NCBI GenBank assembly: GCA_963805625.1 | Contig: CAWDVE010000013.1 | Coordinates: forward strand, 610,458-674,457 | Reading direction: 5' to 3' | Length of the DNA: 64,000 nucleotides | From: an uncultured Candidatus Rokubacteria bacterium | Lineage (GTDB): Bacteria > Methylomirabilota > Methylomirabilia > Rokubacteriales > DASRDR01 | Shown here: positions 17,915 to 63,542 of the stretch, in pieces | Numbering within the stretch: the stretch's first letter is position 1 | How the letters are laid out: every line of letters starts with the position of its first letter | Notes under the pieces: model-generated | Seen by the model: only the letters and a program-made list of their open reading frames with translations | What the model was told of the DNA's origin: nothing | Databases searched by the model: none | Translations under genes and position numbers: made by a program

Positions 17915-18739
17915 GAGCCGTCAAGACGCACGTCCAAGGCCTCCTCGGGAAACTCGGCCTGTATGATCGACTCAAGGCGTCTTACCTCTACGATCTCTAC
18001 TGGCTGATGGCCGACAGGTCGATCATTGACGCGAGGCGTTCGGAACTCGCTTTCTACCAGAGGACTACTGCGAGGCATTCGGCCTGGCGATCTGATCTTT
18101 GATATCGGCGCCAACGAGGGCTACAAGACGGATGTATTCCTCAGAATTGGCGCCCGCGTGGTTGCAGTGGAACCGGACCAGCACTGCCAGGAGGTGTTGA
18201 AGAGGCGATTCCTGGAGCACCGTGTCCGTGCACGCTCCGTTGCAATTGTGGGCGCTGCCGTAAGCGATCACGATGGTGTCGACACGATATGGACCGACGC
18301 GCCCGGGTCAGCCAAAAACACACTGAGCAAGAAGTGGGTTGAGCTGCTGAGGAAGGACGAGGGCCGTTTTGGCACGCGCCTTGCCTTTGGCAGCCGGCAA
18401 AATGTTGAAACGCTGCGCCTCGAGACGCTCATCACTAGGTACGGCGAACCGTTCTTCATCAAGATCGATGTTGAAGGTTACGAGCCTCAGGTTCTCCGCG
18501 GTTTGGGCCGCCCGATTTCATATGTGTCGTTCGAGGTCAATCTGCCTGAGTTCAGACCTGAGGGTCAGCAGTGCATAGAACTGCTCGCAGCGCAAAGCGC
18601 CGACGGCAGGTTCAACTACGCGGTCGATTGTCATCGCGGCCTCGTGCTTCAGAAGTGGGCCGACAAACGGGAGTTCCTGTCGGTATTCGGCGAATGCAAT
18701 GAAAGCTCGATCGAGGTCTTCTGGACTATGAAGGGCTAG
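17911..18739 (+). CDS. FkbM-family methyltransferase (frameshift near 18060)
   Basis: GTGA overlap. 'IFDIGANEG', 'VAVEP', 'IKIDVEGYEPQVLRG'. Confidence 0.85.
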
Positions 18740-24941: not shown

Positions 24942-26405
24942 CAGCCCGTGGTGGAAGTGCCGAGACTCAGCGAGCGGGCGCGACGATCCATGGCGTGGGC
25001 AGGACGGGGCGGATCGGTTCCCAGATCGTCCAGAGACGCGTCACGGGCGCCCAGAGGTGATCGGCAAGTGCTCCGAGGGCGATGTCGAGCGCACCCGGGG
25101 CGAAACGGCGTCCCTGCAGCCCTCGCGGCGTGCCGCGCCCGAACGCGTGCCGCATGACGAGGCCGAGATTGAAGGCGCTCGCGTGCACGAGCAGTCGCTT
25201 GAGGATGTTCGGGTGCCCGCGCAAGTGCGTGCGCCGGAGACCGCCGGTGTCATAGACGTGGGCGAACGAGCGTTCGACGTACTCGCCGCGGCAGCGCAGC
25301 AGCCGCTTGCCGCGCGCGCCGCGCACCCGCCGGCGATTGCCGTAGACCGGACCCTGCGCCTCCGGCGTCTTCGTCCAGTCCCGGCGGCCACGCTCGGGCT
25401 CGGCGATGTAGGATCGGACCTCGACCGCCTGGAGGTCGACCATCGTTTGGTTGCTGTGATACCCCTTGTCGGCGACGATCTCGGTCAGCTCCGCCGGCGC
25501 GTCGCGCTCCGCGTGCGCCGCCTCGATCTGTTCCGCGGCGGCGATGGCGGTCTCCACGAGGCTCGTCGTATCCCCGACATCCGCGCCCTGCAGCGTGACC
25601 GCCACGAGCGCGCCGCTGTCCAGATCCACGGCGTGCTCGGCCTTGTGCGCCAGGTGCGTGCGCCCGTCTTTCATCTTGGTGATCTTCGCGTCCGGATCGA
25701 ACGGGTTCTGCCAGTCCCTGTTCGACGTCCGCTTCTTCCGCCGGCGATCGAGGCGCGCCAAGGCCTCACGGGTCGGCGTCTTGATGCCCGACTCGACCGC
25801 GAGCCGGGTCAGGAACTCCTGGTAGCGCTCGCCGGTGTCGCGCCGCACGATGCTGCGCATGGCGGCGTTCGCCTCCAGCGTCGTCGCGTCGATCGCGACG
25901 GTGCGCCCCGTGAGCAGCCCGGCCGCGACCAGGCGCTCCTGCACCCACGTGAAGATGGCCCGATGGATCTCGACGGGGATCAAGCGTCGCGTGCGCGAGA
26001 TCGTCGAATGATCCGGGGCCGCGGTGTCGAGGCCCAGCCCGACGAAGCTGCGCACGGCGAGCGAATCGGCCGCGCGCCAGGCGATGCCCCGCTCCGAGTC
26101 GAGCCCCTCGAAGTAGCCGAGCAGCAGCAACCGGAAGTACCGTCCCGGCAGCAGGCTCGGTCGCCCCATCACCGGCGCGTAGCATGGCCGACACTGCGCC
26201 TCCGCGAACCGGTCGAAGCCGGCCTCGTCGAGGATGGCGTTCAGCCGCGCGTAAAAGGGATGGCCCGGCGACACCGGGAGGTCGCGTGGTCGGAATCCAC
26301 ATCAGCGCTTGCTCGCTCGTGCGTTTGCCCATCGCCATGCGTCGCAGTGTACGCGGCCCACACGCGGCCATGGAAGACCTATTCGCCGACTTTCACCACG
26401 GGCTG
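24942..26405 (-). mobile_element. Complete insertion sequence, IS1182-type (IS5/IS4-like DDE)
   Basis: 17-bp terminal inverted repeats CAGCCCGTGGTGGAAGT (24942-24958) and ACTTTCACCACGGGCTG (26389-26405), 1 mismatch. 4-bp TTAG direct repeats at 24938-24941 and 26406-26409. Confidence 0.9.
24967..26338 (-). CDS. DDE transposase (one frameshift near 26285)
   Basis: 'GRPSLLP..YFRLLLLGYFEGLDSERGI', 'PDHSTISR', 'IDAT', 'DPDA', 'ADKGY', 'VERSFAH'. N-terminus MAMGKR..MWIPT is in a shifted frame. Confidence 0.9.
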
Positions 26406-30527: not shown

Positions 30528-32020
30528 CAGGCCCGCGCGCCGGCTCGCCACCGACCGCGTGCCAGGCACCACTCAAGGGCGGCCAGCACCTCACGCTTCA
30601 ACGGATGTCCGGTACCCATGATCGCGATCAGCCAGGCGGACGTGGAGACCATCGCCACTAGGGAAAGGGTCAGCGGCAGAAAGGTCAAGCGATGGGAACC
30701 CGCCTGCATCGCGACCACGGCGGGGATCAGGGTGCACGCGGTGACCATCGCGCTGGGCCGCATGGCCCGCACGATATCCAGGAGCGAGATCCTCAGCAGC
30801 GGGCAGAGGTAACCCAGGTAGATTGCGCCACCCAAGACCATCGTGGCCACCTGGGCTCCGGCGACTGCCATGAGCCCCCACTGCACCGCTACCAGCACGA
30901 GGAGAATCCTGACCGGCTGCATGAGCAGCTCGCCGGTCAGGATCTTTCTCACGTGTCCCAGTCCCATGATGACCTGAGTCGATGTCAACCAGATCGCGTA
31001 GACGGCGCCAGACACGCATAACGCGGCCGCGATCGGAGCGGCCTCGATCCAGGCGGGCCCGAACAGCACGCGGATGAGGGGTTCTGCGGTCAGCGCCAGG
31101 ACCCCGTAGAACGGCCATGCCACACCGGTCATGTACGTGACCGATTTCAGATAGGCTCCCTTCAGGTCGCCTCCTGCTCGGTGGGCGGATGCGAAACCGG
31201 GGAGGAGTACGCGGTACACGGTGGTGCCGATATCGCGGTTGAAGAGGGCGACCGTGCCCTGGGCGCGCACGTAGAGGCCGACGGCCGTGAAAGTGAGGTA
31301 GCGGGGCACGATCAAGTTTGCCGCTTGCATGCCGAGCGCGCTCGAGAGAGACGCGAGGGTCGACTGAAAGCCGAAAGGGAGTACGCGCCGCCACTCGGTG
31401 AGACGCAGTCGAATCCGCGCGTCCGCCCATCGAAACCGGAAGACAAGCGCCAGTATCACAACATTGCTGGCGAGAGATCCCCAGGCGAGGCTCAGGTAGC
31501 TCGCTCCCAGAGCGGCCAGCGAGACCGCAACGACGGCGTAGACCAACGCGGCGGCGATACCGATCCGACACAGGAAAGCGAATTCCATGTGGCGCTGCAG
31601 CCTGGCCATCGCCGGCGCGGTCAAGGGTGCGACGACAAGACCGACCGCGAGAAGCTGAAGGACGGGAATCAAGCCGGGCTCCCGGTAGAAAGCGGCGATC
31701 GAACCCGAGCCTAGCCAGACGACGGCGGCGAAACCCACGCTGAGCAGGACAGTCAGCGACATCGCGGTGCCGTAGCGCTCCTCGGTTAGGTCCGGCTCCT
31801 GGATGATGTACTGCGTCATGCCAAGGTCGCGCATGCTCTGAAGGATCAGGAGGATTGATGTCCCAACGGAGAAGACCCCAACTTCGGCGGGCGTCAGGAG
31901 CCGTGCGATCACGACCGATGACGCGAACTGGATTCCTGTCGAGACGTACCGTTCGAGCAGCGCGAGCAGTAAGGATCGGCGAATGCTCGTCGGCACGGAT
32001 TGCGTTGAAACGGGTATCAT
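30527..32020 (-). CDS. wzx: Wzx-type oligosaccharide flippase
   Basis: 'ARLLTPAEVGVF', 'DLGMTQYIIQ', 'VGLYVRA', 'LFGPAW', many TM helices. Confidence 0.88.
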
Positions 32021-45316: not shown

Positions 45317-46558
45317 TCAGGCTCCGCTGTCCGGGCGGATCACGCGCATCTCATAGGGCATGTGGACCATGCCTCGAATGTAGCGGTCGCTCTCCACCTC
45401 GATCTCCCAATTGTTTCTTCTCCAGTCGTAGATGTCGAGCATGTCGGAGCCACAGACGAGTGCAGTGATGCGATACACACCAGGGGCCAGTGAGACGGAG
45501 GGGAAGCGCACCTCGACGATCGTCGGCTTCTCGATCCGTCCGAGCTGGTACCCCGCGTACCCACCCTCCCCGCTAGGCGTGCCCGTCCTGGCAGAGGCGG
45601 CGACCACACCGTGCGCCGAGTTGAACCCCAACTCCACCACGGGACTGTCGACGGCCTCGCGTGGCACGAGATGGATGCGGACCCTGAGCTCGTCGCCCAA
45701 GCGGAAGCGTGCCGTGGAACGGCCTTCGCCGTCCAGAAACTCCACATCGGTGATCGTCACGCGGCCATTCCCCGCGCGCAGCACTTCACGGATCCAGCCC
45801 GAAGGCCGCCGACGGTACTCGGCAAAGCAGTCGTGGATGCCGCCCGACAGGACCAGAGTGCCTCGCTCGAGCAGCAGGCCTCGCGTGCACACCCGGCGGA
45901 CGAGCTCCTCGTTGTGACTGACGAGGATGACGGTGCAGCCGGACTCGCACAGACGGCTCACGTGCTGGAGGCACTTCGCCTGGAACGCCATGTCGCCGAC
46001 CGCCAACACCTCGTCGACCAGGAGGATGTCAGGTCGGAGGTGGGCCGCCACGGCAAAGCCGAGGCGGACGTACATCCCGGAGCTGTAGAACTTGACCGGC
46101 GTGTCGATGAACTCGGCCAGCTCGGCGAACGCCACGATATCGTCGAACTGACGCCTGATCTCGGCCGTCGTCAGACCAAGGATGGCGCCGTTGATATAGA
46201 CATTCTCGCGTCCTGTGAGCATCGGGTGAAACCCCGCACCGATCTCGATGAGCGCCACCACGCGGCCGCGCATGTGGATCGTGCCCAGGTCGGGCCGGAT
46301 GATGCCGTTGAGCAGCTTGAGGAGGGTGCTCTTCCCGGCACCATTGGCGCCGACCAGTCCCAGACATTCCCCGCGCCGCAGCTCGAAGTTCACGTTATCC
46401 AGGGCCCAGAACTCGTCGACGCGGAGTGTTCCGTTGGCCGACCGAAGCCCGACTACATCCCGCAGGATGTCCCGTACCCCGTACCACATCGAACGGCGCA
46501 GGTTCCGGCAGAAGCGCTTGGAGACGCCATCCACCCGAACGACGAAGTCCTCGGTCAC
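45317..46558 (-). CDS. wzt: Polysaccharide ABC exporter ATP-binding protein with C-terminal carbohydrate-binding domain
   Basis: Walker A GANGAGKST, 'YSSGMYVRLGF', 'DEVLAVGD', ~170-aa Wzt_C-like beta-sandwich. Confidence 0.93.
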   Translation of the reverse strand: MTEDFVVRVDGVSKRFCRNLRRSMWYGVRDILRDVVGLRSANGTLRVDEFWALDNVNFELRRGECLGLVGANGAGKSTLLKLLNGIIRPDLGTIHMRGRVVALIEIGAGFHPMLTGRENVYINGAILGLTTAEIRRQFDDIVAFAELAEFIDTPVKFYSSGMYVRLGFAVAAHLRPDILLVDEVLAVGDMAFQAKCLQHVSRLCESGCTVILVSHNEELVRRVCTRGLLLERGTLVLSGGIHDCFAEYRRRPSGWIREVLRAGNGRVTITDVEFLDGEGRSTARFRLGDELRVRIHLVPREAVDSPVVELGFNSAHGVVAASARTGTPSGEGGYAGYQLGRIEKPTIVEVRFPSVSLAPGVYRITALVCGSDMLDIYDWRRNNWEIEVESDRYIRGMVHMPYEMRVIRPDSGA

Positions 46559-46561
46559 CGG

Positions 46562-47407
46562 CTACACCCTCTCGATGATGCGCGGCATCGCGACGTGAAA
46601 CGCGCGCCAGGCTAGCAGGAAGATGATGACGCCCATGCAGCTCGCAAGGACGAGTGTGACCGGGTGGCTCAGGGTCCCGCGGAACACCAGATCACGAGTG
46701 GCAATAATGAACGGGCTCGCGGGGTTGAGATAATTGACCAACGTAGCAGGCCAGCGAGTCGGCGGTGGGTACACGACGGGGGCCAGGAACATGCCGAAGG
46801 TCGTCACCAACACCACCGCGTTGGCGGTGTCCCGGAACACGCCGTTGAGCGGCGCGAGCAGAAAGCCGAAGCCGAGGGTCATGAGCGCGAGCGGGACAAG
46901 CGCCATGGGCACCAGGACGGCAGCCCAGGACGGGGCAATTCCGAACCACGCCAACGCGGCGCCGGCAAGCAGCGCGCGCAGCATGAAGTCCAAAACGGCT
47001 TGACCGAACGCCGCAACGACCAACGTCTCCCTCGCAAAGTCGATCTTGGTGACGAAGTTCCCGGCCGCGGTGAGGCTCTGGGCCGTGACCAGGAGGCCGC
47101 CCGCGAAGAGCTGCCATACCGCCAAGCCCAGCAGGACGTAGACCCCGTACGGGACATCGGTCTCCGGGATCGGCACGACCTGGGCACGGCGGAGGTAGAC
47201 GAACGAGCCCACGATGAGGATGGTCGGCAGGAGGGCCCAGACGTATCCGAGCACAGACTGCCGGTACTTGGCGGAGAAGTCGCGGACGAACAAGCGCCAG
47301 ACCAACTGGCGGCCTGCGACGAGAGACCGCGCCATGTCGAGCCAGATCCTGGGTCCCCAGCCGAGACCCCGATCGGGCGTGTAGATCACGTGTGGGAGGC
47401 GGCTCAC
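46562..47407 (-). CDS. wzm: Polysaccharide ABC exporter permease
   Basis: 'RDFSAKYRQSVLGYVW', 'PVVYP', 'LNP', 6 TM helices, adjacent to wzt. Confidence 0.92.
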   Translation of the reverse strand: MSRLPHVIYTPDRGLGWGPRIWLDMARSLVAGRQLVWRLFVRDFSAKYRQSVLGYVWALLPTILIVGSFVYLRRAQVVPIPETDVPYGVYVLLGLAVWQLFAGGLLVTAQSLTAAGNFVTKIDFARETLVVAAFGQAVLDFMLRALLAGAALAWFGIAPSWAAVLVPMALVPLALMTLGFGFLLAPLNGVFRDTANAVVLVTTFGMFLAPVVYPPPTRWPATLVNYLNPASPFIIATRDLVFRGTLSHPVTLVLASCMGVIIFLLAWRAFHVAMPRIIERV

Positions 47408-51363: not shown

Positions 51364-51933
51364 TCAGCACAGGACCCGCTCGAGGAGTTCGCAGATCGTG
51401 TGGCCGATGAGGATGTGGCACTCCTGGATCCGCGGCGTCGAGGCCGATGGGACGCAAAGGCAGACGTCGCAGAGGTCACGCATCTTGCCGCCGCTCTCGC
51501 CGGTCAACCCGATCACCGTCATCCGCGTCTCCCGTGCGGCCTCGATCGCGCGCAGCACGTTCTCGCTGTTCCCGCTGGTCGAGAGCGCGAGGAGGACGTC
51601 CCCCGGCCGTCCGTGAGCGGCCACCTCCCGGGCGAACACGTGGTCGTAGCCGTAGTCGTTGCCGATCGCGGTGAGCGACGACGTGTTCCCGTGGAGGGCC
51701 ATGGCCGGGAGCGGTCGCCGATCGCGGAAGAACCGCCCGGTGAGCTCGGCCGCGATGTGCTGGGCGTCGGCGGCCGAGCCGCCGTTCCCGCACGCGAGGA
51801 GCCGGCCGCCGGCGGCCATCGACCGGGCGATGGTCGCCACGACGCGGTCCACGTCCCCGGCCAAGGGACGGAGGGCCATCGCCACCCGCAGGTGCTCGTC
51901 CCAGATCGTCTCGATCGCACGGCGATGGCTCAC
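51364..51933 (-). CDS. gmhA: Phosphoheptose (sedoheptulose-7-phosphate) isomerase
   Basis: 'CGNGGSAADAQHIAAE', 'NDYGY', 'STSGNS', 'RIQECHILIGH'. Confidence 0.95.
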   Translation of the reverse strand: MSHRRAIETIWDEHLRVAMALRPLAGDVDRVVATIARSMAAGGRLLACGNGGSAADAQHIAAELTGRFFRDRRPLPAMALHGNTSSLTAIGNDYGYDHVFAREVAAHGRPGDVLLALSTSGNSENVLRAIEAARETRMTVIGLTGESGGKMRDLCDVCLCVPSASTPRIQECHILIGHTICELLERVLC

Positions 51934-52948
51934 CTGAGCGTCCATGTCCGGACCCCCGGCTCGACGAAGGTGAGGTTGACGAGCTGGCTGCCGGCCTTCA
52001 AGAGCGCCTCCTGCACGGCATAGCGCCGCATCGGGTCGCAGAGAAAGAACATGAAGCCGCCCCCGCCCGCGCCGCTCATCTTGCCGCCGAGGGCCCCCGC
52101 CTGGATCGCGCGCTCGTACAGCTCGTCGATCCGGGCGCTGGTGATGCCCTTCGCCATCTGGCGCTTGCTCTCCCAGGCGAGGTGGAGGAGCTCCCCCAGC
52201 TCCCGCAGGTCGCCGACCAGGAGCGCCCGCTTCATGTCGTGCGTGAGGACCTTCAGCCGGTCCATCGCGTGGACGCTCTCGACGCGTCGCGTCTCGTAGT
52301 TCTTCATCTGGTTCCGGATGATGTCGTCCGAGAAGTGCCCCTCGCCGACGTACGCGAAGACCAGGCTGTGCTCCAGCTCCCAGATCGTCTCCGGGCGGAG
52401 GCGGAGGGGGACGACTAGCACCGTCCCGCCCGGGTGGAACTCGATCAGGTTGAAGCCGCCGAACGTCGTCGCGTACTGGTCCTGCTTCCCCCCTTGATCC
52501 CGACCTCGAGGCGCTCGATCCGGTAGGCGAGGTCCGCGATCTGGTAGGCGTCGACCGGGAGGCGCAGCCACTCGGCAATCGCCGACACGAGCGCGACCGT
52601 CACCGCCGACGACGAACCCAGGCCCGAGCCGGGCGGGGCGTCGTTGTGGAGGACCACCTCGAGCCCACCATTGAGCGCCTTCTCGCGGCGGAAGTGATCG
52701 ATGATCCCCTTCGCCAGGTCGAGCTGACCGTCGTAGACGAACGGGTCGTCGATGCTGTAGCTGACGCTCTGGTCGTAATCGATGCTCCGGACGGTCACCT
52801 GCTCCCCATTCGGGACGACCGTGGCCGTGGCATAGCGGTTGATCGTCGCGCTGAGGACCACGCCGCCACGCTCGTCGCAGTACGGCGGCACGTCCGTCCC
52901 CCCGCCGCAGAAGCTGAGACGCAAGGGAGCCCGCGCCCGAATCAACAT
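51930..52948 (-). CDS. hddA: D-glycero-alpha-D-manno-heptose-7-phosphate kinase (GHMP); frameshift in G-run near 52490
   Basis: 'RAPLRLSFCGGGTDV', 'PPGSGLGSSS', 'GGKQDQYA..FGG', 'GGKMSGAGGGGF'. Confidence 0.9.
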
Positions 52949-53051
52949 CTCATGCCTCCCTCTCCGTCCGACCCGACCAGCGACCCAGCGCTGGAGCATG
53001 GTACAGTAGCCCCTGGCCCGCGGTCGCACGTCGGCCGGAATTCGCGCGCCC

Positions 53052-54952: not shown

Positions 54953-56350
54953 TCACGCGGCGCGGGTGTCGGCCCGGTCCGGCGCGGCCGGCTCGACCCG
55001 GTGGACCAGCCCATCGTCGTCGCCGAGCTCCACGTAGGCGACCCGGGCCCGCGCGCTCTCCTCGCCCTCGACGCGCCAGCCGTTGCCGTCCCGGACGAGG
55101 GTCATCCGGCTCCGCGCCCGCCACCAGCGCTCCACCTCGCCGGGCAGGCCGATCCAGCACCGCCCCGCCTCCCGGAGGCGGGCCAGGTGCTCGAGCCAGG
55201 CGCGGTATGCGTGCCGGGCCCCGGCGGGCTCGAGGTAGTCGGGATGGACGAGGAAGCTCGCCAGGCCGTGACGCGCCATGACCGCTTTCAGCTGCTGGCG
55301 CCAGACCTCGTTGGAGAAGTCGTGGAGCACGTGGAAGAGCGAATAGTCCTGGGTCGTCGTCAACGGCAGCTCGACAATTCGGCCAATGAAGTACGGCATC
55401 ACCGTGCAGCAGCCGCCGCGCTGGACCTCGAGGTGCCCCACGTTCGGCACCGACATGTCGTAGGCGATCTCGAGCGCGTCGTACCATTCGGGCCGCCGGT
55501 AAAGGACCCCGGACCGGAACCCCCGGGCACCAAACTCCCGAGCGTACGCGTTGATCCGGAGCGCCCGGCGCCGGAACTCGTCGCGGTCGGTGAAGAGGCG
55601 CCCGTCGTGGTTCAGGTCGTGGATGTTCACCTCGAACCCGCGACGGCGGATCGCGTCGAGAACCCCCGGCGGGATCTCGTAGCGGCCCTCGGGCACGAGC
55701 TGGAACGATGCCCGCATCCCGTGGGCCTCGTCCGTATCCATCAGCCAGCCGCAGGCCGCGAGCCCCGCCGCGGTCTCGACGTCGTGGGTGAGGATGACGG
55801 CGCTCGGCGCGCCGTCTGGCCAGAACCACACGAACGGCAGCCGGGAGATCCCCTGGCTGCGCAAAGCCAGGAGCACGAGCCGCTCGAGGATCCGCTCGAC
55901 GGTGTCGTCGACGGGCCAGCGCGGGAACGGCCGGGCCTTCCAGTCGCGGAAGTACGTCCGCTGGAGCGACCGGCGCAGCCCGGATGGCATCAACCCGCGC
56001 AGCCCGTAATACACGGCGGCTTGCCAGGACTTCGGGCGGAAGCCATCCGGTCCCGCCAAATCGCTCGCGTAACGCTCGAGCCGCAGGTTGTCGATGACCT
56101 CCGACGGGTCGAAGGGCACGCGCACGACGCCGCCGTCCGTCGTGACCGCCGACAGGGTGTCGTAGAGCCCGTTGACCGGCACCCGGGCGCGAGACCCACT
56201 GGAGGTCTGGCCGTAGCAGACCGTCTCCGGGCCGAACCGGAAGTAGCCGGCGTCCGGGGACAGGTCGCTGGCCAGCCCGAGGCGCACGAATTCCTCGGGG
56301 CAGCGGTAGTAGTCGATCAGAGCGCGCTCGAGCACCGGTTCGATCCTCAC
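54953..56350 (-). CDS. Polysaccharide deacetylase-like protein
   Basis: GTGA overlap start. 'ILTHDVE', 'EVNIHDLNHDG', 'GFRSG', 'YDMS', 'ELPLT', 'VHPDY'. Confidence 0.78.
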   Translation of the reverse strand: MRIEPVLERALIDYYRCPEEFVRLGLASDLSPDAGYFRFGPETVCYGQTSSGSRARVPVNGLYDTLSAVTTDGGVVRVPFDPSEVIDNLRLERYASDLAGPDGFRPKSWQAAVYYGLRGLMPSGLRRSLQRTYFRDWKARPFPRWPVDDTVERILERLVLLALRSQGISRLPFVWFWPDGAPSAVILTHDVETAAGLAACGWLMDTDEAHGMRASFQLVPEGRYEIPPGVLDAIRRRGFEVNIHDLNHDGRLFTDRDEFRRRALRINAYAREFGARGFRSGVLYRRPEWYDALEIAYDMSVPNVGHLEVQRGGCCTVMPYFIGRIVELPLTTTQDYSLFHVLHDFSNEVWRQQLKAVMARHGLASFLVHPDYLEPAGARHAYRAWLEHLARLREAGRCWIGLPGEVERWWRARSRMTLVRDGNGWRVEGEESARARVAYVELGDDDGLVHRVEPAAPDRADTRAA

Positions 56351-57625: not shown

Positions 57626-58630
57626 TCACCCCCGGACCCGTCCCACCTTCACCTGCCCCCGGGCCCGGCCAGCCCTCCCCGCCTCGGCCCGCTGGAGGAG
57701 CCACACGACGCCGCCCACCACGAGCAGGGTGACGAAGAACAGCGGGATCCCGCCCCGGCTGTGGACGACGCTGCCCGTGATGAAGCTCTTGTCGACGTGG
57801 ATGGCGAGGAGGGATAGCACGACGATCCGGACGGCGTTCTTGACGATGGCGATGGGCAGAATCGCCAGGGCCAGCGTGCCCCGCGCCCACCCGGTGCGCA
57901 GGAGGAGGTGGCCCGCCAGTACGCCGGTGATCGTGAGCGCCAGGAACGACCGGATGCCGCTGCACTCCTCCGCCACCTCGATGGCGAGCCCCGGGAGCCA
58001 GAAGAAGAACCCCTCCCGGTACACCGGGACGCCGACAACGTTGAAGAGCACGTACGTCACCTCGGCCGAGGCCTTCTGGAGCGAGACGATGGTGCTGTGC
58101 AGGAGGAAGGGGGGGAGCGGCACCATGAAGAGGAGAAAGGCGACCGGAAAGGCAGCCGCCTTGAGGGCATCCACCCCGTAGCAGAGCAGGAACGTCCCCG
58201 AGCACAACAGGACGAGCGCCAGCATCGCCAGCGATACGAAGATCTGCTCCGGGTCGGTGACCGGACCCGACCGCGCGATCCAGGACAGCGCGACCCCGGC
58301 CAGCATCAGCACCCCGCCCCCGCCGGGCGCGTAGGCCACACGGGCGAAGATCGCGCCACGGTCGAGATAGACTAGAACGGCGCTAACCAGGGGGATGAGG
58401 ACGACGTGGGAGTAGTGCTCGTACTGGCCGGAGCGAAGGGATACCGCGATCACGGTGCTGAGCGGCTGCCAGAGCCAGGCGACTGACAGGCCCACGAGGA
58501 CCAGGAACGCCGCGTCTCTCACCCCGAGGATCGGCCCCACTCCGGCCGGCATCGCCACCGGCACCGGGGGGGACGGCCCCCTGGCCGCCACCGCCGCGCG
58601 GCCGGCTCCCTCATCGCTCGGGGGCGTCAT
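57626..58630 (-). CDS. Exosortase (EpsH/Xrt family)
   Basis: Multi-TM. 'YSHVVLIP', 'FMVPLP', Cys-Arg-His triad in 'VAEECSGIRS', 'KNAVRI', 'VHSRGG'. No EpsI extension. Confidence 0.92.
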   Translation of the reverse strand: MTPPSDEGAGRAAVAARGPSPPVPVAMPAGVGPILGVRDAAFLVLVGLSVAWLWQPLSTVIAVSLRSGQYEHYSHVVLIPLVSAVLVYLDRGAIFARVAYAPGGGGVLMLAGVALSWIARSGPVTDPEQIFVSLAMLALVLLCSGTFLLCYGVDALKAAAFPVAFLLFMVPLPPFLLHSTIVSLQKASAEVTYVLFNVVGVPVYREGFFFWLPGLAIEVAEECSGIRSFLALTITGVLAGHLLLRTGWARGTLALAILPIAIVKNAVRIVVLSLLAIHVDKSFITGSVVHSRGGIPLFFVTLLVVGGVVWLLQRAEAGRAGRARGQVKVGRVRG

Positions 58631-58649: not shown

Positions 58650-59864
58650 TCAGTGGGCGCCCGTGCCGGAGATCACCGCCCGCGGCGTCGCCAGAAGAAT
58701 CCCGAGATCGGTCGAGAGCGACTGCGTCCGCGCGTAGCGGAGGTCGAGGCGCACGATCTCGTCGAACGTCGTCCGGCTCCGCCCCCGGACCTGCCAGAGC
58801 CCCGTGAGGCCGGGCCGCGCCTCGAAGATCCGCCGGCGATGCCAGGGGGCATACTCCTGGAGCTCGTACGGAAGCGGCGGGCGTGGACCGACTAGCGACA
58901 TCTCACCCCGGAGGACGTTCCAGAGCTGGGGTAGCTCATCGAGGCTGCTCTTCCGGAGGAGGCGTCCGATGGGCGTGACGCGCGGGTCCCCCACCAGCTT
59001 GAACAGGCCCGCACCGTTGGGCGGTGTGGCATGCCGGCCGTCCGTGATGAACCGGCTCACGAACTCGCGGTGCACGGTCTCGTCGGCGTTCACGAACATC
59101 GTCCGGAACTTCAGGAAGGTGAAGGGGCGGCTCCGGTATCCGACCCGCACCTGCCGGAACAGGACGGGCCCAGGAGACGTCAGCCGGACCAACCCTGCGA
59201 TCAGGAGCCCGAGCGGCGCCAGCGCCACCAGGAGGGCCGCGCTCCCGACGAGGTCCAGGCCCCGCTTCAGCATCTCGGCCCGGCGGCGGGCCCCCCGCGG
59301 CTCCCCGAGCTCCGGGTAGAGGAGCGGCTCCACGAGGCTGCCGGGGTTGCCAGCGGGCGACCCGCTCGCCCCCGGGGCCACCGCCGCGGCCTCGGCAGGC
59401 GCAGACTCGGGGAACAGACGGCCCTCGAGCGTGACGGTTTCCCCGGCCGGCCCGGCCGGAAGGTGTCGGCCGAGCGCCCGCTCAACCCGGGCCCGGACGC
59501 GCTCGACGGCGGCCCATGGTCCGCGCTGAGGCAGGTCGGGGAGCAGAACGCCGAGGACCGAGGGCGGCCTGATCCAGCCCGCTACGTCGATCTCGCGCGT
59601 GGCCGCATCCACGGTGTCGCGGACGATCCGGCCGAGCGGCGAGACCGACGGATCCAGGGATCCTGGAGCGCGCAGGACGAGGATCCCGAACGACCGGCCC
59701 GAGCGCTCGGCCCGCCGGCGCTCGAGGAGGACGAGGCGGCTGAATGCATCGGCGGCGAAGAGGGGGCGTGCCGCGGGCATCCTCCCGCCGGCACCGCGGC
59801 GCCTGGCCACATCGTGAGGCAGCGCCTCCTCTCGGTGGCCCCGGTCGTCGTCCGAGCGGCTCAC
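58650..59864 (-). CDS. Priming phosphoglycosyl (sugar) transferase with N-terminal degenerate GGDEF-like domain
   Basis: C-terminal 'KRGLDL', 'KFRTM', 'DPRVT', 'SLDELPQLWNVLRGEMSLVGPRP', 'PGLTGLWQV'. N-terminal 'ERRRAERSGRSFGILVL..REIDVAGW..GVLLP'. Confidence 0.88.
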   Translation of the reverse strand: MSRSDDDRGHREEALPHDVARRRGAGGRMPAARPLFAADAFSRLVLLERRRAERSGRSFGILVLRAPGSLDPSVSPLGRIVRDTVDAATREIDVAGWIRPPSVLGVLLPDLPQRGPWAAVERVRARVERALGRHLPAGPAGETVTLEGRLFPESAPAEAAAVAPGASGSPAGNPGSLVEPLLYPELGEPRGARRRAEMLKRGLDLVGSAALLVALAPLGLLIAGLVRLTSPGPVLFRQVRVGYRSRPFTFLKFRTMFVNADETVHREFVSRFITDGRHATPPNGAGLFKLVGDPRVTPIGRLLRKSSLDELPQLWNVLRGEMSLVGPRPPLPYELQEYAPWHRRRIFEARPGLTGLWQVRGRSRTTFDEIVRLDLRYARTQSLSTDLGILLATPRAVISGTGAH

Positions 59865-60967
59865 GGCGCTGACGGCAGCACTGCCGCCGTGGGGGAGTGC
59901 CGCTGGGCGCGACGGCGGCCCTTGACGGCGACGATGCGGCGCCGCGCGGTGGCGAGGCCACTGGACCCGAGCCCCATCGGGGCCCCACGGCGCTCGACCG
60001 ATCGCTGAGCGGCCTCGAGCATCCGGACGACCCGCAGCCCGCTCCGGCCGTCACTCAGGGGCCGGCGTCCGTTCGCGATGCAGTCGAGGAAATGGCGCGT
60101 CTCCCGGTGGAGCGCCTCGCCCTCCTCGATCCGGGGCGCCCACATGTCCCCGCTCCGGTAGCTCACCAGGAGGTCGTAGATCCCCTGCTGGCTCGTGATC
60201 TCGACCCCCTTGTCGTAGACCTTCAGCTTCTCGGCGGGCTCGAGGTCGTTCCACACCAGCATCTTCCGGTCCCCTCCGAGGAAGGTCGTGCGCACCTTCA
60301 TGGGGGAGAGCCAGTTGACGTTCACGTGGGCGATGACGTCGTTGGGGAAGTAGAGCGTGATATAAGCCAGGTCCTCGTGGCCGTTCAGGTGAGCCTGGCC
60401 AGTCGCCACCACCTGCTCCGGCTGGAGGCCGAGCACGTGATCGATGATGGCGAAATCGTGGGGCGCGAGATCCCAGATCACGTTGACGTCGTGCTGAAAG
60501 AGACCGAGGTTGACCCGGGTCGAGTCGTAGTAGTAGAGGCGCCCCAGGGCGCCCTCGTCCACCAGCTGCTTGATCTTCCGCACCGTCCCCGTGAAGAGGA
60601 ATGTGTGGTCCACCATGATCACCCGCCGGCCCCGGTCGGCTCGCGCGATCAGGTCCTCGGCCTCGGCCGCCGTCGCCGTGAAGGGCTTCTCCACGAAGAC
60701 GTGCTTGCCGTGGTCGAGCGCCTGACGCGCGAGCGCGTAGTGGCTCGAGACTGGCGTCGCGATCGCCACCGCGTCGATACCGGGGGCCGTCAGCACCTCC
60801 GCCGCGTCGGCCGTGGTGGCGATGCCAGGGTAGTGAGCCTGGGCCCGCGCGAACGCCCCCGGGTTCTGATCGCAGATGGCAATGACCTGGCAATCCGGTT
60901 GAGCGTGGAAGTTCCGGACCAGGTTTGGGCCCCAGTAGCCGTAGCCGATGACGCCGAGTCGAAGCAT
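59861..60967 (-). CDS. Gfo/Idh/MocA-family oxidoreductase (paralog of 4323-5387)
   Basis: 'IGYGYWGPNLVRNF', 'HVFVEKP', 'IWDLAPHD'. Confidence 0.9.
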   Translation of the reverse strand: MLRLGVIGYGYWGPNLVRNFHAQPDCQVIAICDQNPGAFARAQAHYPGIATTADAAEVLTAPGIDAVAIATPVSSHYALARQALDHGKHVFVEKPFTATAAEAEDLIARADRGRRVIMVDHTFLFTGTVRKIKQLVDEGALGRLYYYDSTRVNLGLFQHDVNVIWDLAPHDFAIIDHVLGLQPEQVVATGQAHLNGHEDLAYITLYFPNDVIAHVNVNWLSPMKVRTTFLGGDRKMLVWNDLEPAEKLKVYDKGVEITSQQGIYDLLVSYRSGDMWAPRIEEGEALHRETRHFLDCIANGRRPLSDGRSGLRVVRMLEAAQRSVERRGAPMGLGSSGLATARRRIVAVKGRRRAQRHSPTAAVLPSAP

Positions 60968-60978
60968 GCGAATGATCC

Positions 60979-61575
60979 TCAGATCGGGGCGCGCCGCGAG
61001 ACCGCGGCCGCCTCGGCTGTCCGTGGCCCGAGGGAGGTGTTCGTAGGCATCCCGCCCGCGGCTGCGCCGGCGCGCTCCGCTGCCGCCCCGGCTGGACGGG
61101 GACTCTTGACCGCCGACCTCGTCGTCTCGGTAGCTCCGGGGGCCGCGAACAGGGGGTGGAAGCGGGCCCGAGCCCCCGATGCGCCGAGGCAGTAGACCCT
61201 CACCCGCAGACTGGGAGCGAGCTCGGCGGGCAGCGCAGCGCCAAGGGCCCGGAGCACCTTGGTCCCGACCAGACGGGCGGTCTCGGGATCGACGGCCGTC
61301 TCGGCCAGAAGGGCGGCTGCCCTCCGGTTCGCCCGGTGCCATCCCACGAGATCGCTCTCCCGGAGGCAACGCGCCAGCGCCGGGGCGAGCCCCGTCGCCT
61401 CGACGCCCGGGCGCCGGGTCCGGCCGGTCGATGCTCCCACGCCACCACCTCCGACATCCACGACGACGACAAACAGAGTGCCCACCACCCGCCGAGCCCG
61501 CCCCGCCTCGACAGCAAGGAGGTACCGAAAGACCGGCTCATCCCAGCATGCCGTCCCATCGCCGTCGCGTACCAT
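60979..61575 (-). CDS. Stand-alone degenerate GGDEF-like protein
   Basis: 'FRYLLAVEAGRARR..LFVVVVDV..LARCLRESDLVGW..AALLAET' follows GGDEF-domain topology, with RxxD but no GGDEF. Confidence 0.6.
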   Translation of the reverse strand: MVRDGDGTACWDEPVFRYLLAVEAGRARRVVGTLFVVVVDVGGGGVGASTGRTRRPGVEATGLAPALARCLRESDLVGWHRANRRAAALLAETAVDPETARLVGTKVLRALGAALPAELAPSLRVRVYCLGASGARARFHPLFAAPGATETTRSAVKSPRPAGAAAERAGAAAGGMPTNTSLGPRTAEAAAVSRRAPI

Positions 61576-61948
61576 GCACGCATTTTCCCACTCGGGCACT
61601 GCGGTCCGACGAGCACCACACGCCCGGTGGCGAGGAAGGACAGAGCAAGGCCCGTGCTAGGTCTCCCTGGTGAGTGGCTAGCCTCCTCGCGGATGGCCAC
61701 GGCCTAGTCCTATGACCGCGCTGCTGTAGGAGAAATCTCACCGATACGGGGAGCGACGGGGACCGCTCTGCCGCAGGCAGACCCTCGGTGAGTGATCGCT
61801 CGTCCGTGAGACCGTGCACTGGAGTCGTGCGAGAAGGGCTCCACGTTCATAGAAGCGGAATCGCCCTGCATACGGAGCGAAGGGAGCCTCAGCTTGCTCG
61901 AGGAGGCCGAGTGTGCAATGTCTTGCACACTCGGCTGGCGGATCTGAT

Positions 61949-62887
61949 TCAGAGTCGGCGGGAGGGGAATGCTCTGGGGGTCTTCATCAAGACGATCTGT
62001 CCCGGACCTTCACTTCTTCCCCTGCCCTTCGAGAAGGTGGCCGAGATGGAAGTAGCCGCGGTTATCTGCAGCGCACAGGTCCCCGTGCCGCTGCACGCTC
62101 CGCCCCACCCGACGAACCTGGCGCCGTTGACGGGCGTCGCCGTCAGGGTCACGGCCGTACCGCTCGCGTAGCTTTCCGAGCAGTCGGAGCCGCAGTCGAT
62201 CCCCGCAGGGCCGCTGGTCACTGTGCCGGGGCCGGACTTGGCCGCGGAGAGCGTGTAGGAGGCGGAGGGTGCCGCAACGGGTGCCGCAACGAAGGTCGCG
62301 CTGACGCTGACCGGCGCGTTGCCGGTGAGCGTGCAGGGGTCGGTGCCGGCGCAGCCGCCCCCCCCCCAGCCGCCGAACGTCGAGTCGCTCGCGGCGCTGG
62401 CGGACAGCGTCACCACGGCGCCGCTCGGGTAGGTCTCGACGCAGTCCGTGCCGCAGCTGATCCCGCTCGGGCTGCTATTCACCATGCCTTTTCCCGTGCC
62501 GGCCAGGCTCACCGTGACGACGAGACCCGTGGCGAGGGTCCCGCAGGCCTCATTCGAGTACGCCGAGACGCTCGTGTCGTTGTAGGCCTGGACCCGGTAA
62601 CAGTAGGTGGTGCCCTCGAGGGCGCTGGCGTCGACGTACGAGGTGATTCCAGCTCTGGAGGTCGAGCTCGCATAGGCGCCGGCCGTGCCCGTCTTGCGCT
62701 CGATTCGGAACGCGGCCTCACCTCCGGAATTGTCGGCCCACGAGAGCTGGAACTGGCCAGCGCCGGCTACCCCGGGCGCCAGGACAGCGGCCAGCGCGAG
62801 CAAAATCGCCGGCCCACGGGATCGGAAGCGCGAACTCCAGCGCTGGAACGATGATAGGAGCAGGCTGGACGACCCTAGGACAGGCAT
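61949..62887 (-). CDS. Secreted FN3 plus two InlB-B-repeat-like domain surface protein
   Basis: GGAGG RBS, signal peptide, 'LSWADNS..FRIERK..YCYRVQAYN..SAYSNE', two 'G.V.S.P.GI.CG.DC.E.Y.SG..VTL.A...F.GWGG.C.GT..C' repeats. Confidence 0.85.
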   Translation of the reverse strand: MPVLGSSSLLLSSFQRWSSRFRSRGPAILLALAAVLAPGVAGAGQFQLSWADNSGGEAAFRIERKTGTAGAYASSTSRAGITSYVDASALEGTTYCYRVQAYNDTSVSAYSNEACGTLATGLVVTVSLAGTGKGMVNSSPSGISCGTDCVETYPSGAVVTLSASAASDSTFGGWGGGGCAGTDPCTLTGNAPVSVSATFVAAPVAAPSASYTLSAAKSGPGTVTSGPAGIDCGSDCSESYASGTAVTLTATPVNGARFVGWGGACSGTGTCALQITAATSISATFSKGRGRSEGPGQIVLMKTPRAFPSRRL

Positions 62888-62930
62888 GGCATCTCCCTCC
62901 AAAGCGGGAGGCCATTCCCCTTAAGTACCT

Positions 62931-63022
62931 CTTCCCTTCGGCAGCCCGGCTCCCAGGCCGTCTGGCCTGGCCCGTGGCTTTGCGTCCCCGCCTCGCGACG
63001 GGTTTGCCCTTGTCGGGGGAAG
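62931..63022 (-). ncRNA. c-di-GMP-I (GEMM) riboswitch
   Basis: Minus strand CUUCCCCCGACAAGGGCAAACCCGUC-GCGA-GGCGGGGACGCAAAGCCACGGGCC...GGGAGCCGGGCUGCCGAAGGGAAG. Contains the GGCAAAC, GNRA loop, GACGCAAAGCC and GGGYUGCC signatures, in the 5' leader of the gene at 62887. Confidence 0.9.
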
Positions 63023-63287: not shown

Positions 63288-63542
63288 CTAACCGGCGCTT
63301 CCGGTTACCGGAGCGGTCTCCATCCCGCTGCGGGTGGGCGCCGCACGGGGACAGCCTCTCGGAGACGCGCAAGAGCCGGACGGTGGAGTCGAGCACCGGA
63401 CACGCCCTCGTCCAGGAACTCCGCGACGATCTCGTCGCCCCGTTTTGCGGCCCAGGCGCGTAGCTCCGTCACCTGTGACCTGAGAACCGTACCGCTCGAC
63501 CTGTTCTTCGGTGCTGACCCGCGCGTACAGGCAGACTCTCAC
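63288..63542 (-). pseudogene. Serine recombinase N-terminal remnant
   Basis: 'CLYARVSTEEQ', then after a frameshift 'VTELRAWAAKRGDEIVAEFLDEGVSGARLHRPALARL', then truncated. Confidence 0.8.

Follow-up and report, generated by a model that had tools for sequence, protein, structure and literature searches.

Degenerate GGDEF-fold domains, one free and one fused to a priming transferase, form a putative c-di-GMP receptor pair in a Rokubacteria glycan locus

An uncultured Candidatus Rokubacteria bacterium (assembly GCA_963805625.1, 7.27 Mb in 28 contigs) encodes two small GGDEF-fold domains that have lost their catalytic motifs, one as a free protein and the other fused to a monotopic phosphoglycosyl transferase. 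Both lie in a 64,000-nucleotide stretch of contig CAWDVE010000013.1 (positions 610,458 to 674,457), hereafter the window, and the genome also carries seven intact diguanylate cyclases and three c-di-GMP-I-GGC riboswitches. Judging from sequence conservation, we consider it probable that the two domains are a receptor pair for cyclic di-GMP (c-di-GMP) that gates the transferase, likely through cross-linking by the ligand. c-di-GMP would link two such domains, belonging either to two transferases or to a transferase and its free twin, and the link would set the oligomeric state and activity of the enzyme. The first lipid-linked step of glycan synthesis would then be switched by c-di-GMP. This proposal draws on the fold of the domains, their lost catalytic motifs, the retained RxxD motif and helix alpha0 arginines, the intact transferase motifs and the conserved pairing of the two genes.

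Neither domain is found by conventional searches. Pfam GGDEF (PF00990) matches neither protein at E up to 10, NCBIfam GGDEF is likewise silent, and single-sequence searches of the Protein Data Bank (PDB) also miss both domains. With an 11-sequence profile, DosC alone was matched in the PDB (E 0.055). A 17-sequence profile gave 18 PDB matches, with 13 GGDEF chains at the top of the list. When hhalign was run against the genome's seven cyclases it returned 94% and 88%, and 98% for the fused against the free domain. These profiles reach GGDEF independently of the structure models. AlphaFold2 modeled the transferase with a mean predicted local distance difference test score (pLDDT) of 85.5 (120 aligned sequences) and the free open reading frame (ORF) with a mean of 83.6 (149 aligned sequences). 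For the transferase, Foldseek placed four PglC/WbaP rows first, and every other row listed was a GGDEF protein (best E 1.2e-5); for the free ORF the top match was WspR (E 2.6e-5, TM 0.64). VIA-align against 48,161 chains gave GGDEF rows at Z 12.8 for the transferase (root-mean-square deviation 3.2, 120 aligned) and Z 11.9 for the free ORF (3.9, 136 aligned), with unrelated folds at Z 7.3 or lower for both models. Each domain is small, about 120 residues long and predicted soluble, and the models place a single helix between the first two strands where cyclases have two. In one protein-atlas cluster GGDEF is assigned to 11% of members, which is a lead only, and the other clusters are unnamed. 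A sequence-only reading of the window had proposed that both domains adopt the GGDEF fold, and the models and profile comparisons support this.

The two domains had also been called catalytically dead. Consistent with this, neither GG[DE]EF nor FK..ND occurs in any of 268 domains (151 free and 117 fused), and the signature of an active diguanylate cyclase is thus missing throughout. The further idea that an 'xxGW' stretch replaces GGDEF has to be corrected: GW precedes GGDEF, its stretch being the counterpart of the 'xxxR/Y' segment that links RxxD to GGDEF in cyclases, and the GGDEF position is occupied by the residues after GW (IRPPS and HRANR).

What the domains retain are residues of the inhibitory site (I-site). 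The REID and RESD motifs noticed earlier are both present, and both align with the cyclase RxxD, which places them in I-site register. The survey of RxxD conservation proposed as a check found the motif in every free homolog and in most fused ones (counts in Table 1). Both proteins also carry the arginines of helix alpha0, which the earlier reading lacked and which strengthen the case for a receptor. The first invariant arginine falls at the PleD R313 position and the arginine three residues on at WspR R198, of the secondary I-site. This register was counted by hand through one genome cyclase bridged to WspR and PleD, and WspR R242, D245 and GGEEF 251-255 fall correctly in it. c-di-GMP connects two GGDEF domains by contacting RxxD in the first and an alpha0 arginine in the second (PMC7288161, bioRxiv 2020.08.28.271692), either alpha0 position can serve (bioRxiv 2020.08.28.271692), and mutating either R242 or R198 of WspR abolishes c-di-GMP retention (PMC2270323). 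According to a genome survey, the allosteric site is retained in most GGDEF-only proteins whose active site is degenerate, and such proteins could be effectors (PMC2952852).

The free-protein family comprises 1,225 clusters at 50% identity (E 0.001 or better). Our free set began with 158 proteins, and removal of two with a transferase and five gappy sequences left 151. The fused alignment held the window protein and 119 homologs; the RxxD arginine is present in 109 of these 120 sequences, the aspartate in 118, and the G and W in all. Three gappy rows were dropped to give the 117 used for counting. The 11-sequence seed has 24 invariant columns, 18 of which drift in 149 sequences. Six remain (F, R, R, D, G and W), and three of the six are known c-di-GMP ligand positions. 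Elsewhere in the domain, identity to cyclases is 7-22%.

The transferase half is intact. It matches PF02397 and, like WbaP and PglC, has the catalytic domain, the DX12P re-entrant helix and the Asp-Glu dyad that mark a monotopic phosphoglycosyl transferase; its structural matches reach Z 19.3 for WbaP and Z 17.7 for PglC. Unlike these proteins, it begins with a soluble domain of GGDEF fold, and all ten NCBIfam matches, the named models among them, stay below cut-off and cover the C-terminal half only. The model shows no N-terminal membrane bundle, which sets the protein apart from large monotopic transferases of the WbaP/WcaJ/EpsZ type. Soluble domains of monotopic transferases face the cytoplasm, and priming transferases consume a limited pool of undecaprenyl-phosphate.

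The free and fused genes occur together well beyond the window; the earlier reading had suggested a possible heterodimer of the two domains. Of 80 metagenome loci matching the free-protein alignment, four were the fusions themselves. Among the remaining 76, the fused transferase follows the free twin on the same strand in 65, mostly at less than 200 bases or across a gap of 1.1-1.2 kb that holds an oxidoreductase, as in the window. The other 11 loci comprise four contigs that end inside the oxidoreductase, six with at most 104 bases left and one without a partner. Since the scan pattern required RxxD, the presence of a stand-alone RxxD in metagenome loci was not used as evidence. In a survey of 201 genomes of the phylum, 12 matched at E 1e-28 or better, and five of these have both genes. 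The fusion is present without the twin in many Acidobacteriota and others, and appears in records titled Acidobacteriota, Nitrospira, Geobacteraceae, Smithellaceae, Methylococcales, Casimicrobiaceae and Dormiibacterota. A search for the free domain in longer fusions (458-2000 residues) found none, which is weak evidence.

The pairing bears on which residues are lost. Both alpha0 arginines are retained in all 95 fused domains from loci, a count reached after removing seven identical rows. The RxxD arginine is lost in nine of the 60 fused domains that have a twin versus none of the 35 single ones (Fisher p 0.024, for rows that are phylogenetically non-independent). In a tree of all fused rows, 26 free rows and seven cyclases, the free proteins group (support 0.85) and the RxxD losses are scattered over several places. 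Loss of RxxD only where a twin is present, with the alpha0 arginines always kept, is a pattern that a twin-to-enzyme cross-link would allow. In twin-bearing lineages RxxD would come from the twin and the alpha0 arginines from the fused domain. A narrower proposal, which we put forward tentatively and hold to be somewhat less probable than its opposite, is that the free twin staples to the fused domain through an intercalated c-di-GMP dimer in this arrangement, which would recast the feedback clamp of cyclases as a hetero-specific on-switch for an enzyme.

Three side observations concern the domain families. Protein P0152 carries two tandem GGDEF-like domains ahead of a transferase; it was considered as a fusion of twin and transferase and rejected, as by eye it holds two copies of the fused-type domain. 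The GGDEF-like domain is frameshifted in two loci (L063 7932-8472 and L081 9519-10819). A second small degenerate GGDEF family of this phylum (L065 6048-6614 and L066 6853-7422; about 20 genomes of the same taxonomic order) keeps RxxD and ExxRxxR and has lost GGDEF, and from its sequence is a further candidate c-di-GMP receptor. This family passed the profile threshold, matches Pfam GGDEF and was omitted from the pairing and tree counts.

The closest parallels in exopolysaccharide loci are PelD of the Pseudomonas Pel system and BcsE of enterobacterial cellulose synthesis, GGDEF folds that, like the window's domains, have neither the catalytic motif nor helix alpha1 and keep RxxD (PMC7439463). 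Our models match PelD at Z 9.8 and 7.3 and BcsE at Z 7.5 and 6.3; active cyclases score higher, at Z 11-13. PelD and BcsE are separate subunits of synthase-dependent systems for which c-di-GMP binding is shown, whereas the domain described here is a predicted receptor that forms part of a priming transferase in a lipid-carrier pathway and has a free twin. By analogy with PelD and BcsE, c-di-GMP would more likely activate than inhibit the transferase, and we lean moderately toward activation. WspR, PleD and DgcR cross-link through the same RxxD and alpha0 positions, R313 and R198, with an intercalated c-di-GMP dimer as the bridge. In those proteins the link lets the product inhibit a working cyclase; the window's domains have no cyclase motif left, and arginine is infrequent in their PleD R390 column.

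The closest regulatory precedent is EpsW-EpsZ of Myxococcus xanthus, in which a small soluble partner controls an initiating monotopic transferase of a Wzx/Wzy pathway post-translationally, EpsW activating EpsZ by proposed stabilization of its dimer (PMC12802240). It differs in that the signal is phosphorylation of a receiver domain and EpsZ belongs to the large transferases, having a helix bundle plus a domain of unknown function (DUF) (PMC12802240); GGDEF does not occur in the portion of that paper's text drawn on here. Among the papers listed in searches of the open literature, no title or abstract start describes a GGDEF-transferase fusion; a 2021 survey of monotopic transferase fusions and two PelD structure papers were outside the scope of this search and may mention one.

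Several observations weigh against a receptor pair. Canonical cyclases of the same phylum keep the RxxD arginine in 22 of 22 cases, the aspartate in 19 of 22 and ExxRxxR in most, although these 22 were parsed from 30 top-scoring loci and the sample is biased to the best-scoring domains. The residues are therefore ancestral, may also serve fold or protein contact, and prove little by their presence; what counts is that they were selectively kept once the active site had gone. Moreover, the homolog sets came from profiles that already contained the RxxD and alpha0 residues, and a complete RxxD is missing in 12 of 117 close fused homologs. The PleD R390 column holds arginine in 18 of 120 sequences, with a conserved Arg/Lys one turn later in 116. 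The dependence among rows in the Fisher comparison and the weak deep support of the tree add to these points. DgcR works without an arginine equivalent to PleD R390 (bioRxiv 2020.08.28.271692).

If the arginines, which ordinary cyclases also have, are kept for fold or contact, the domains could be protein-contact modules without nucleotide sensing that dimerize the transferase or dock it to its constant neighbors, the oxidoreductase or a Wzc-type kinase. In 38 of 41 loci with the fusion the oxidoreductase is present too, compared with 5 of 49 control loci, WbaP dimerizes through its accessory domain (PMC10942596), and some degenerate GGDEF domains serve other roles (PMC7288161). However, the positions that stay invariant are those of the ligand and come from two distant stretches of sequence, while the remainder has diverged to low identity with cyclases, and the oxidoreductase linkage may be shared operon ancestry. 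We judge contact modules to be unlikely, if the strongest competitor to a receptor pair. Less probable still is that the domains bind another nucleotide, or act as a local c-di-GMP sink, scaffold or cyclase dock for other pathway enzymes and leave the transferase rate unchanged. BcsE does bind c-di-GMP by RxxD and act on a partner complex (PMC7439463), and, where a twin exists, the fused domain can do without an RxxD arginine of its own. Against this, all 35 single fused domains keep the full site on the enzyme itself, and fusion to the first enzyme is most simply explained as control of that enzyme.

The remaining alternative would add a third level to the receptor pair, with one transcript running from a riboswitch across the glycan genes and a single pathway controlled by the RNA as well as by both domains. 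The sequence-only reading spoke of three-level control. It had placed a c-di-GMP-I riboswitch at 62931-63022, and Rfam recovers it within that interval (Table 1) as the sole Rfam match in the window. Every gene of the block downstream of the riboswitch lies on the minus strand with it, and secreted repeat protein and glycan could be co-induced by one signal. However, Rfam finds no riboswitch in 9 + 15 + 8 = 32 related loci (flanks vary, up to 10 kb), and among 233 loci the core riboswitch pattern matches only this genome's three copies. Riboswitch matches are present in 17 of 21 genomes of the family and 14 of 14 of the genus. We examined 26 family riboswitch loci, of which 25 were parsed; most downstream frames start signal-peptide-like by eye, and a GGDEF-like domain or transferase lies within about 1.5 kb in none of the other 25 loci, only in the window's. 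In the sole same-genus genome with the gene pair, the only riboswitch match is sub-threshold and on another contig. The genome's second copy is also far from the block. Lastly, the 374-base gap between the secreted-type gene and the free GGDEF-like gene contains both a hairpin and a sigma-54-like site. We therefore regard a single three-level circuit as highly improbable.

The hairpin is the only perfect inverted repeat in the window with a stem of at least 11 and a loop of at most 8, and would be either a terminator-like hairpin without a U-tract or an activator site. The sigma-54-like site is one of two on both window strands. Looser sigma-54 matches lie upstream of 14 of 59 homologous genes, whereas the opposite strand gives 4 of 59. 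The sigma-54 consensus is matched perfectly at 18370-18384 (+), in the window's other glycan cluster. A sigma-70 scan found no promoter, and two terminator-like matches fall inside a gene. The sequence suggests a transcription boundary at 61645-61935. The glycan block most likely has its own promoter, with the riboswitch likely a separate unit that controls the secreted-type gene only. The RNA runs (8% and 5% of words, in short scattered contigs) are uninformative on co-transcription, and most of their depth over the riboswitch derives from contigs whose flanking sequence is unlike.

The earlier assignment of the riboswitch to a matrix gene fits these data, and the secreted-type gene is its likely target. 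The riboswitch lies 47-50 bases from the start of this gene, its distance to the free ORF being about 1.36 kb, and the genome's second copy precedes a paralog of the gene (E 3e-65). In the encoded protein the fibronectin-III-like domain is below cut-off (fn3 E 0.2), and the signal peptide was judged by eye. The leader fold pairs the ribosome-binding-site-like GGAGGGAG in a hairpin and is no more stable than shuffles (overall z -0.86). A G rather than an A at one aptamer position distinguishes c-di-GMP from cyclic GMP-AMP (cGAMP) sensing, and the riboswitch has G there (GGGCAAACC). The match to RF03167 is full-length with nothing unusual, and the riboswitch adds only that the organism uses c-di-GMP.

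The genome's third copy precedes a small lipoprotein-like gene. A 187-residue lipoprotein-like gene of unassigned family follows c-di-GMP-I-GGC in many genomes of the genus (G000:C10:769845; L069, L270, L274-L276, L281, L282, L284 and L285). By eye, the second riboswitch-plus-paralog copy adjoins replicative-helicase-like and excisionase-like frames. Just upstream of the window's riboswitch, a short ORF at 63288-63542 (-) without a Pfam match starts YARVST-like, a motif we take to be that of serine recombinases. These neighbors suggest that the riboswitch cassette may travel on mobile elements.

Table 1. Features of the locus, in window coordinates from the riboswitch toward the exosortase
Feature	Position	Strand	Evidence
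c-di-GMP-I-GGC riboswitch aptamer	62936..63017	-	Rfam RF03167, 67.1 bits vs gathering score 59
Secreted-type protein, divergent InlB B-repeats and weak fibronectin-III-like domain	61949..62887	-	PF18998 51.2 bits over cut-off
Perfect 13-bp inverted repeat, 4-base loop	61906..61935	.	14 bases after stop of secreted-type gene; -25.2 kcal/mol
Sigma-54 (-24/-12)-like site ahead of free GGDEF-like gene	61645..61659	-	One mismatch to consensus
Free-standing degenerate, truncated GGDEF-fold protein	60979..61575	-	Domain about residues 9-133, low-complexity tail; model and fold searches
Helix alpha0 ExxRxxR, free protein	61489..61509	-	First Arg 151/151, second Arg 114/151 homologs
RESD, RxxD primary I-site, free protein	61351..61362	-	RxxD in 151/151 homologs, median pairwise identity 42%
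Gfo/Idh/MocA oxidoreductase (nucleotide-sugar 3-dehydrogenase-like)	59861..60967	-	PF01408
Monotopic phosphoglycosyl transferase with N-terminal degenerate GGDEF domain	58650..59780	-	376 aa; frame open from 59864; PF02397 203.5 bits
Fused degenerate GGDEF domain	59406..59765	-	Profile comparison, AlphaFold2 model, Foldseek, VIA-align
Helix alpha0 ERRRAER, fused domain	59703..59723	-	Arginines in 116 and 117 of 117 close homologs
REID, RxxD primary I-site, fused domain	59586..59597	-	Whole RxxD in 105/117 close homologs
DX12P motif, re-entrant membrane helix	59214..59255	-	D176 invariant, P189 in at least 90%; motif per PMC12802240
Asp-Glu catalytic dyad	58935..58940	-	D281-E282 invariant in 120 sequences; dyad per PMC12802240
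Exosortase, next gene of glycan block	57626..58630	-	PF09721 154 bits; TIGR02602 above cut-off

Downstream of the riboswitch the genes run in the order secreted-type repeat protein, free GGDEF-like ORF, oxidoreductase, transferase and exosortase. Beyond the exosortase lies a FemAB-like acyltransferase, followed further down by glycosyltransferases, a Wzm/Wzt transporter and a Wzx-type flippase. The oxidoreductase, which separates the genes of the free and fused domains, has UDP-GlcNAc 3-dehydrogenase as its best NCBIfam match, below cut-off; its association with the fusion given above is a hand count of genome loci with and without the fusion. In the 14 loci scanned, the neighbors include Wzc-type chain-length proteins and kinases, AAA_22 ATPases, an exosortase, nucleotide-sugar dehydrogenases, aminotransferases and acetyltransferases. 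These neighbors mark them as lipid-carrier glycan loci. An acetyltransferase, an aminotransferase and a UDP-sugar dehydrogenase often accompany the oxidoreductase and fused transferase; we take the four to be the set for diacetamido-uronic acid synthesis, which offers a lead for the transferase's substrate. The block carries both a Wzx-type flippase and a Wzm/Wzt transporter (30530-32020 and 45317-47407), and the pathway primed by the transferase could run through either. The window also has a transposase, at 24970-26274. A GHMP-kinase (heptose-kinase-like) gene at 51930-53029 (-) is split across two frames, its N- and C-terminal halves forming separate ORFs, through either a frameshift or an assembly error. 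The 441-residue frame at 54953-56278 (-) is without a Pfam or NCBIfam match and looks polysaccharide deacetylase-like by eye.

A 2025 paper describes post-translational Wzx/Wzy control as incompletely understood and, in the portion drawn on here, mentions control by c-di-GMP solely where pathways are synthase-dependent (PMC12802240). If our proposal is correct, this gap would be filled by a c-di-GMP receptor built into the priming enzyme. Standard annotation misses the GGDEF-transferase fusion. On our narrower, tentative proposal, the free and fused genes would represent a widespread, unannotated two-gene module through which c-di-GMP directly controls the first committed step of lipid-carrier (Wzx/Wzy-type) glycans.

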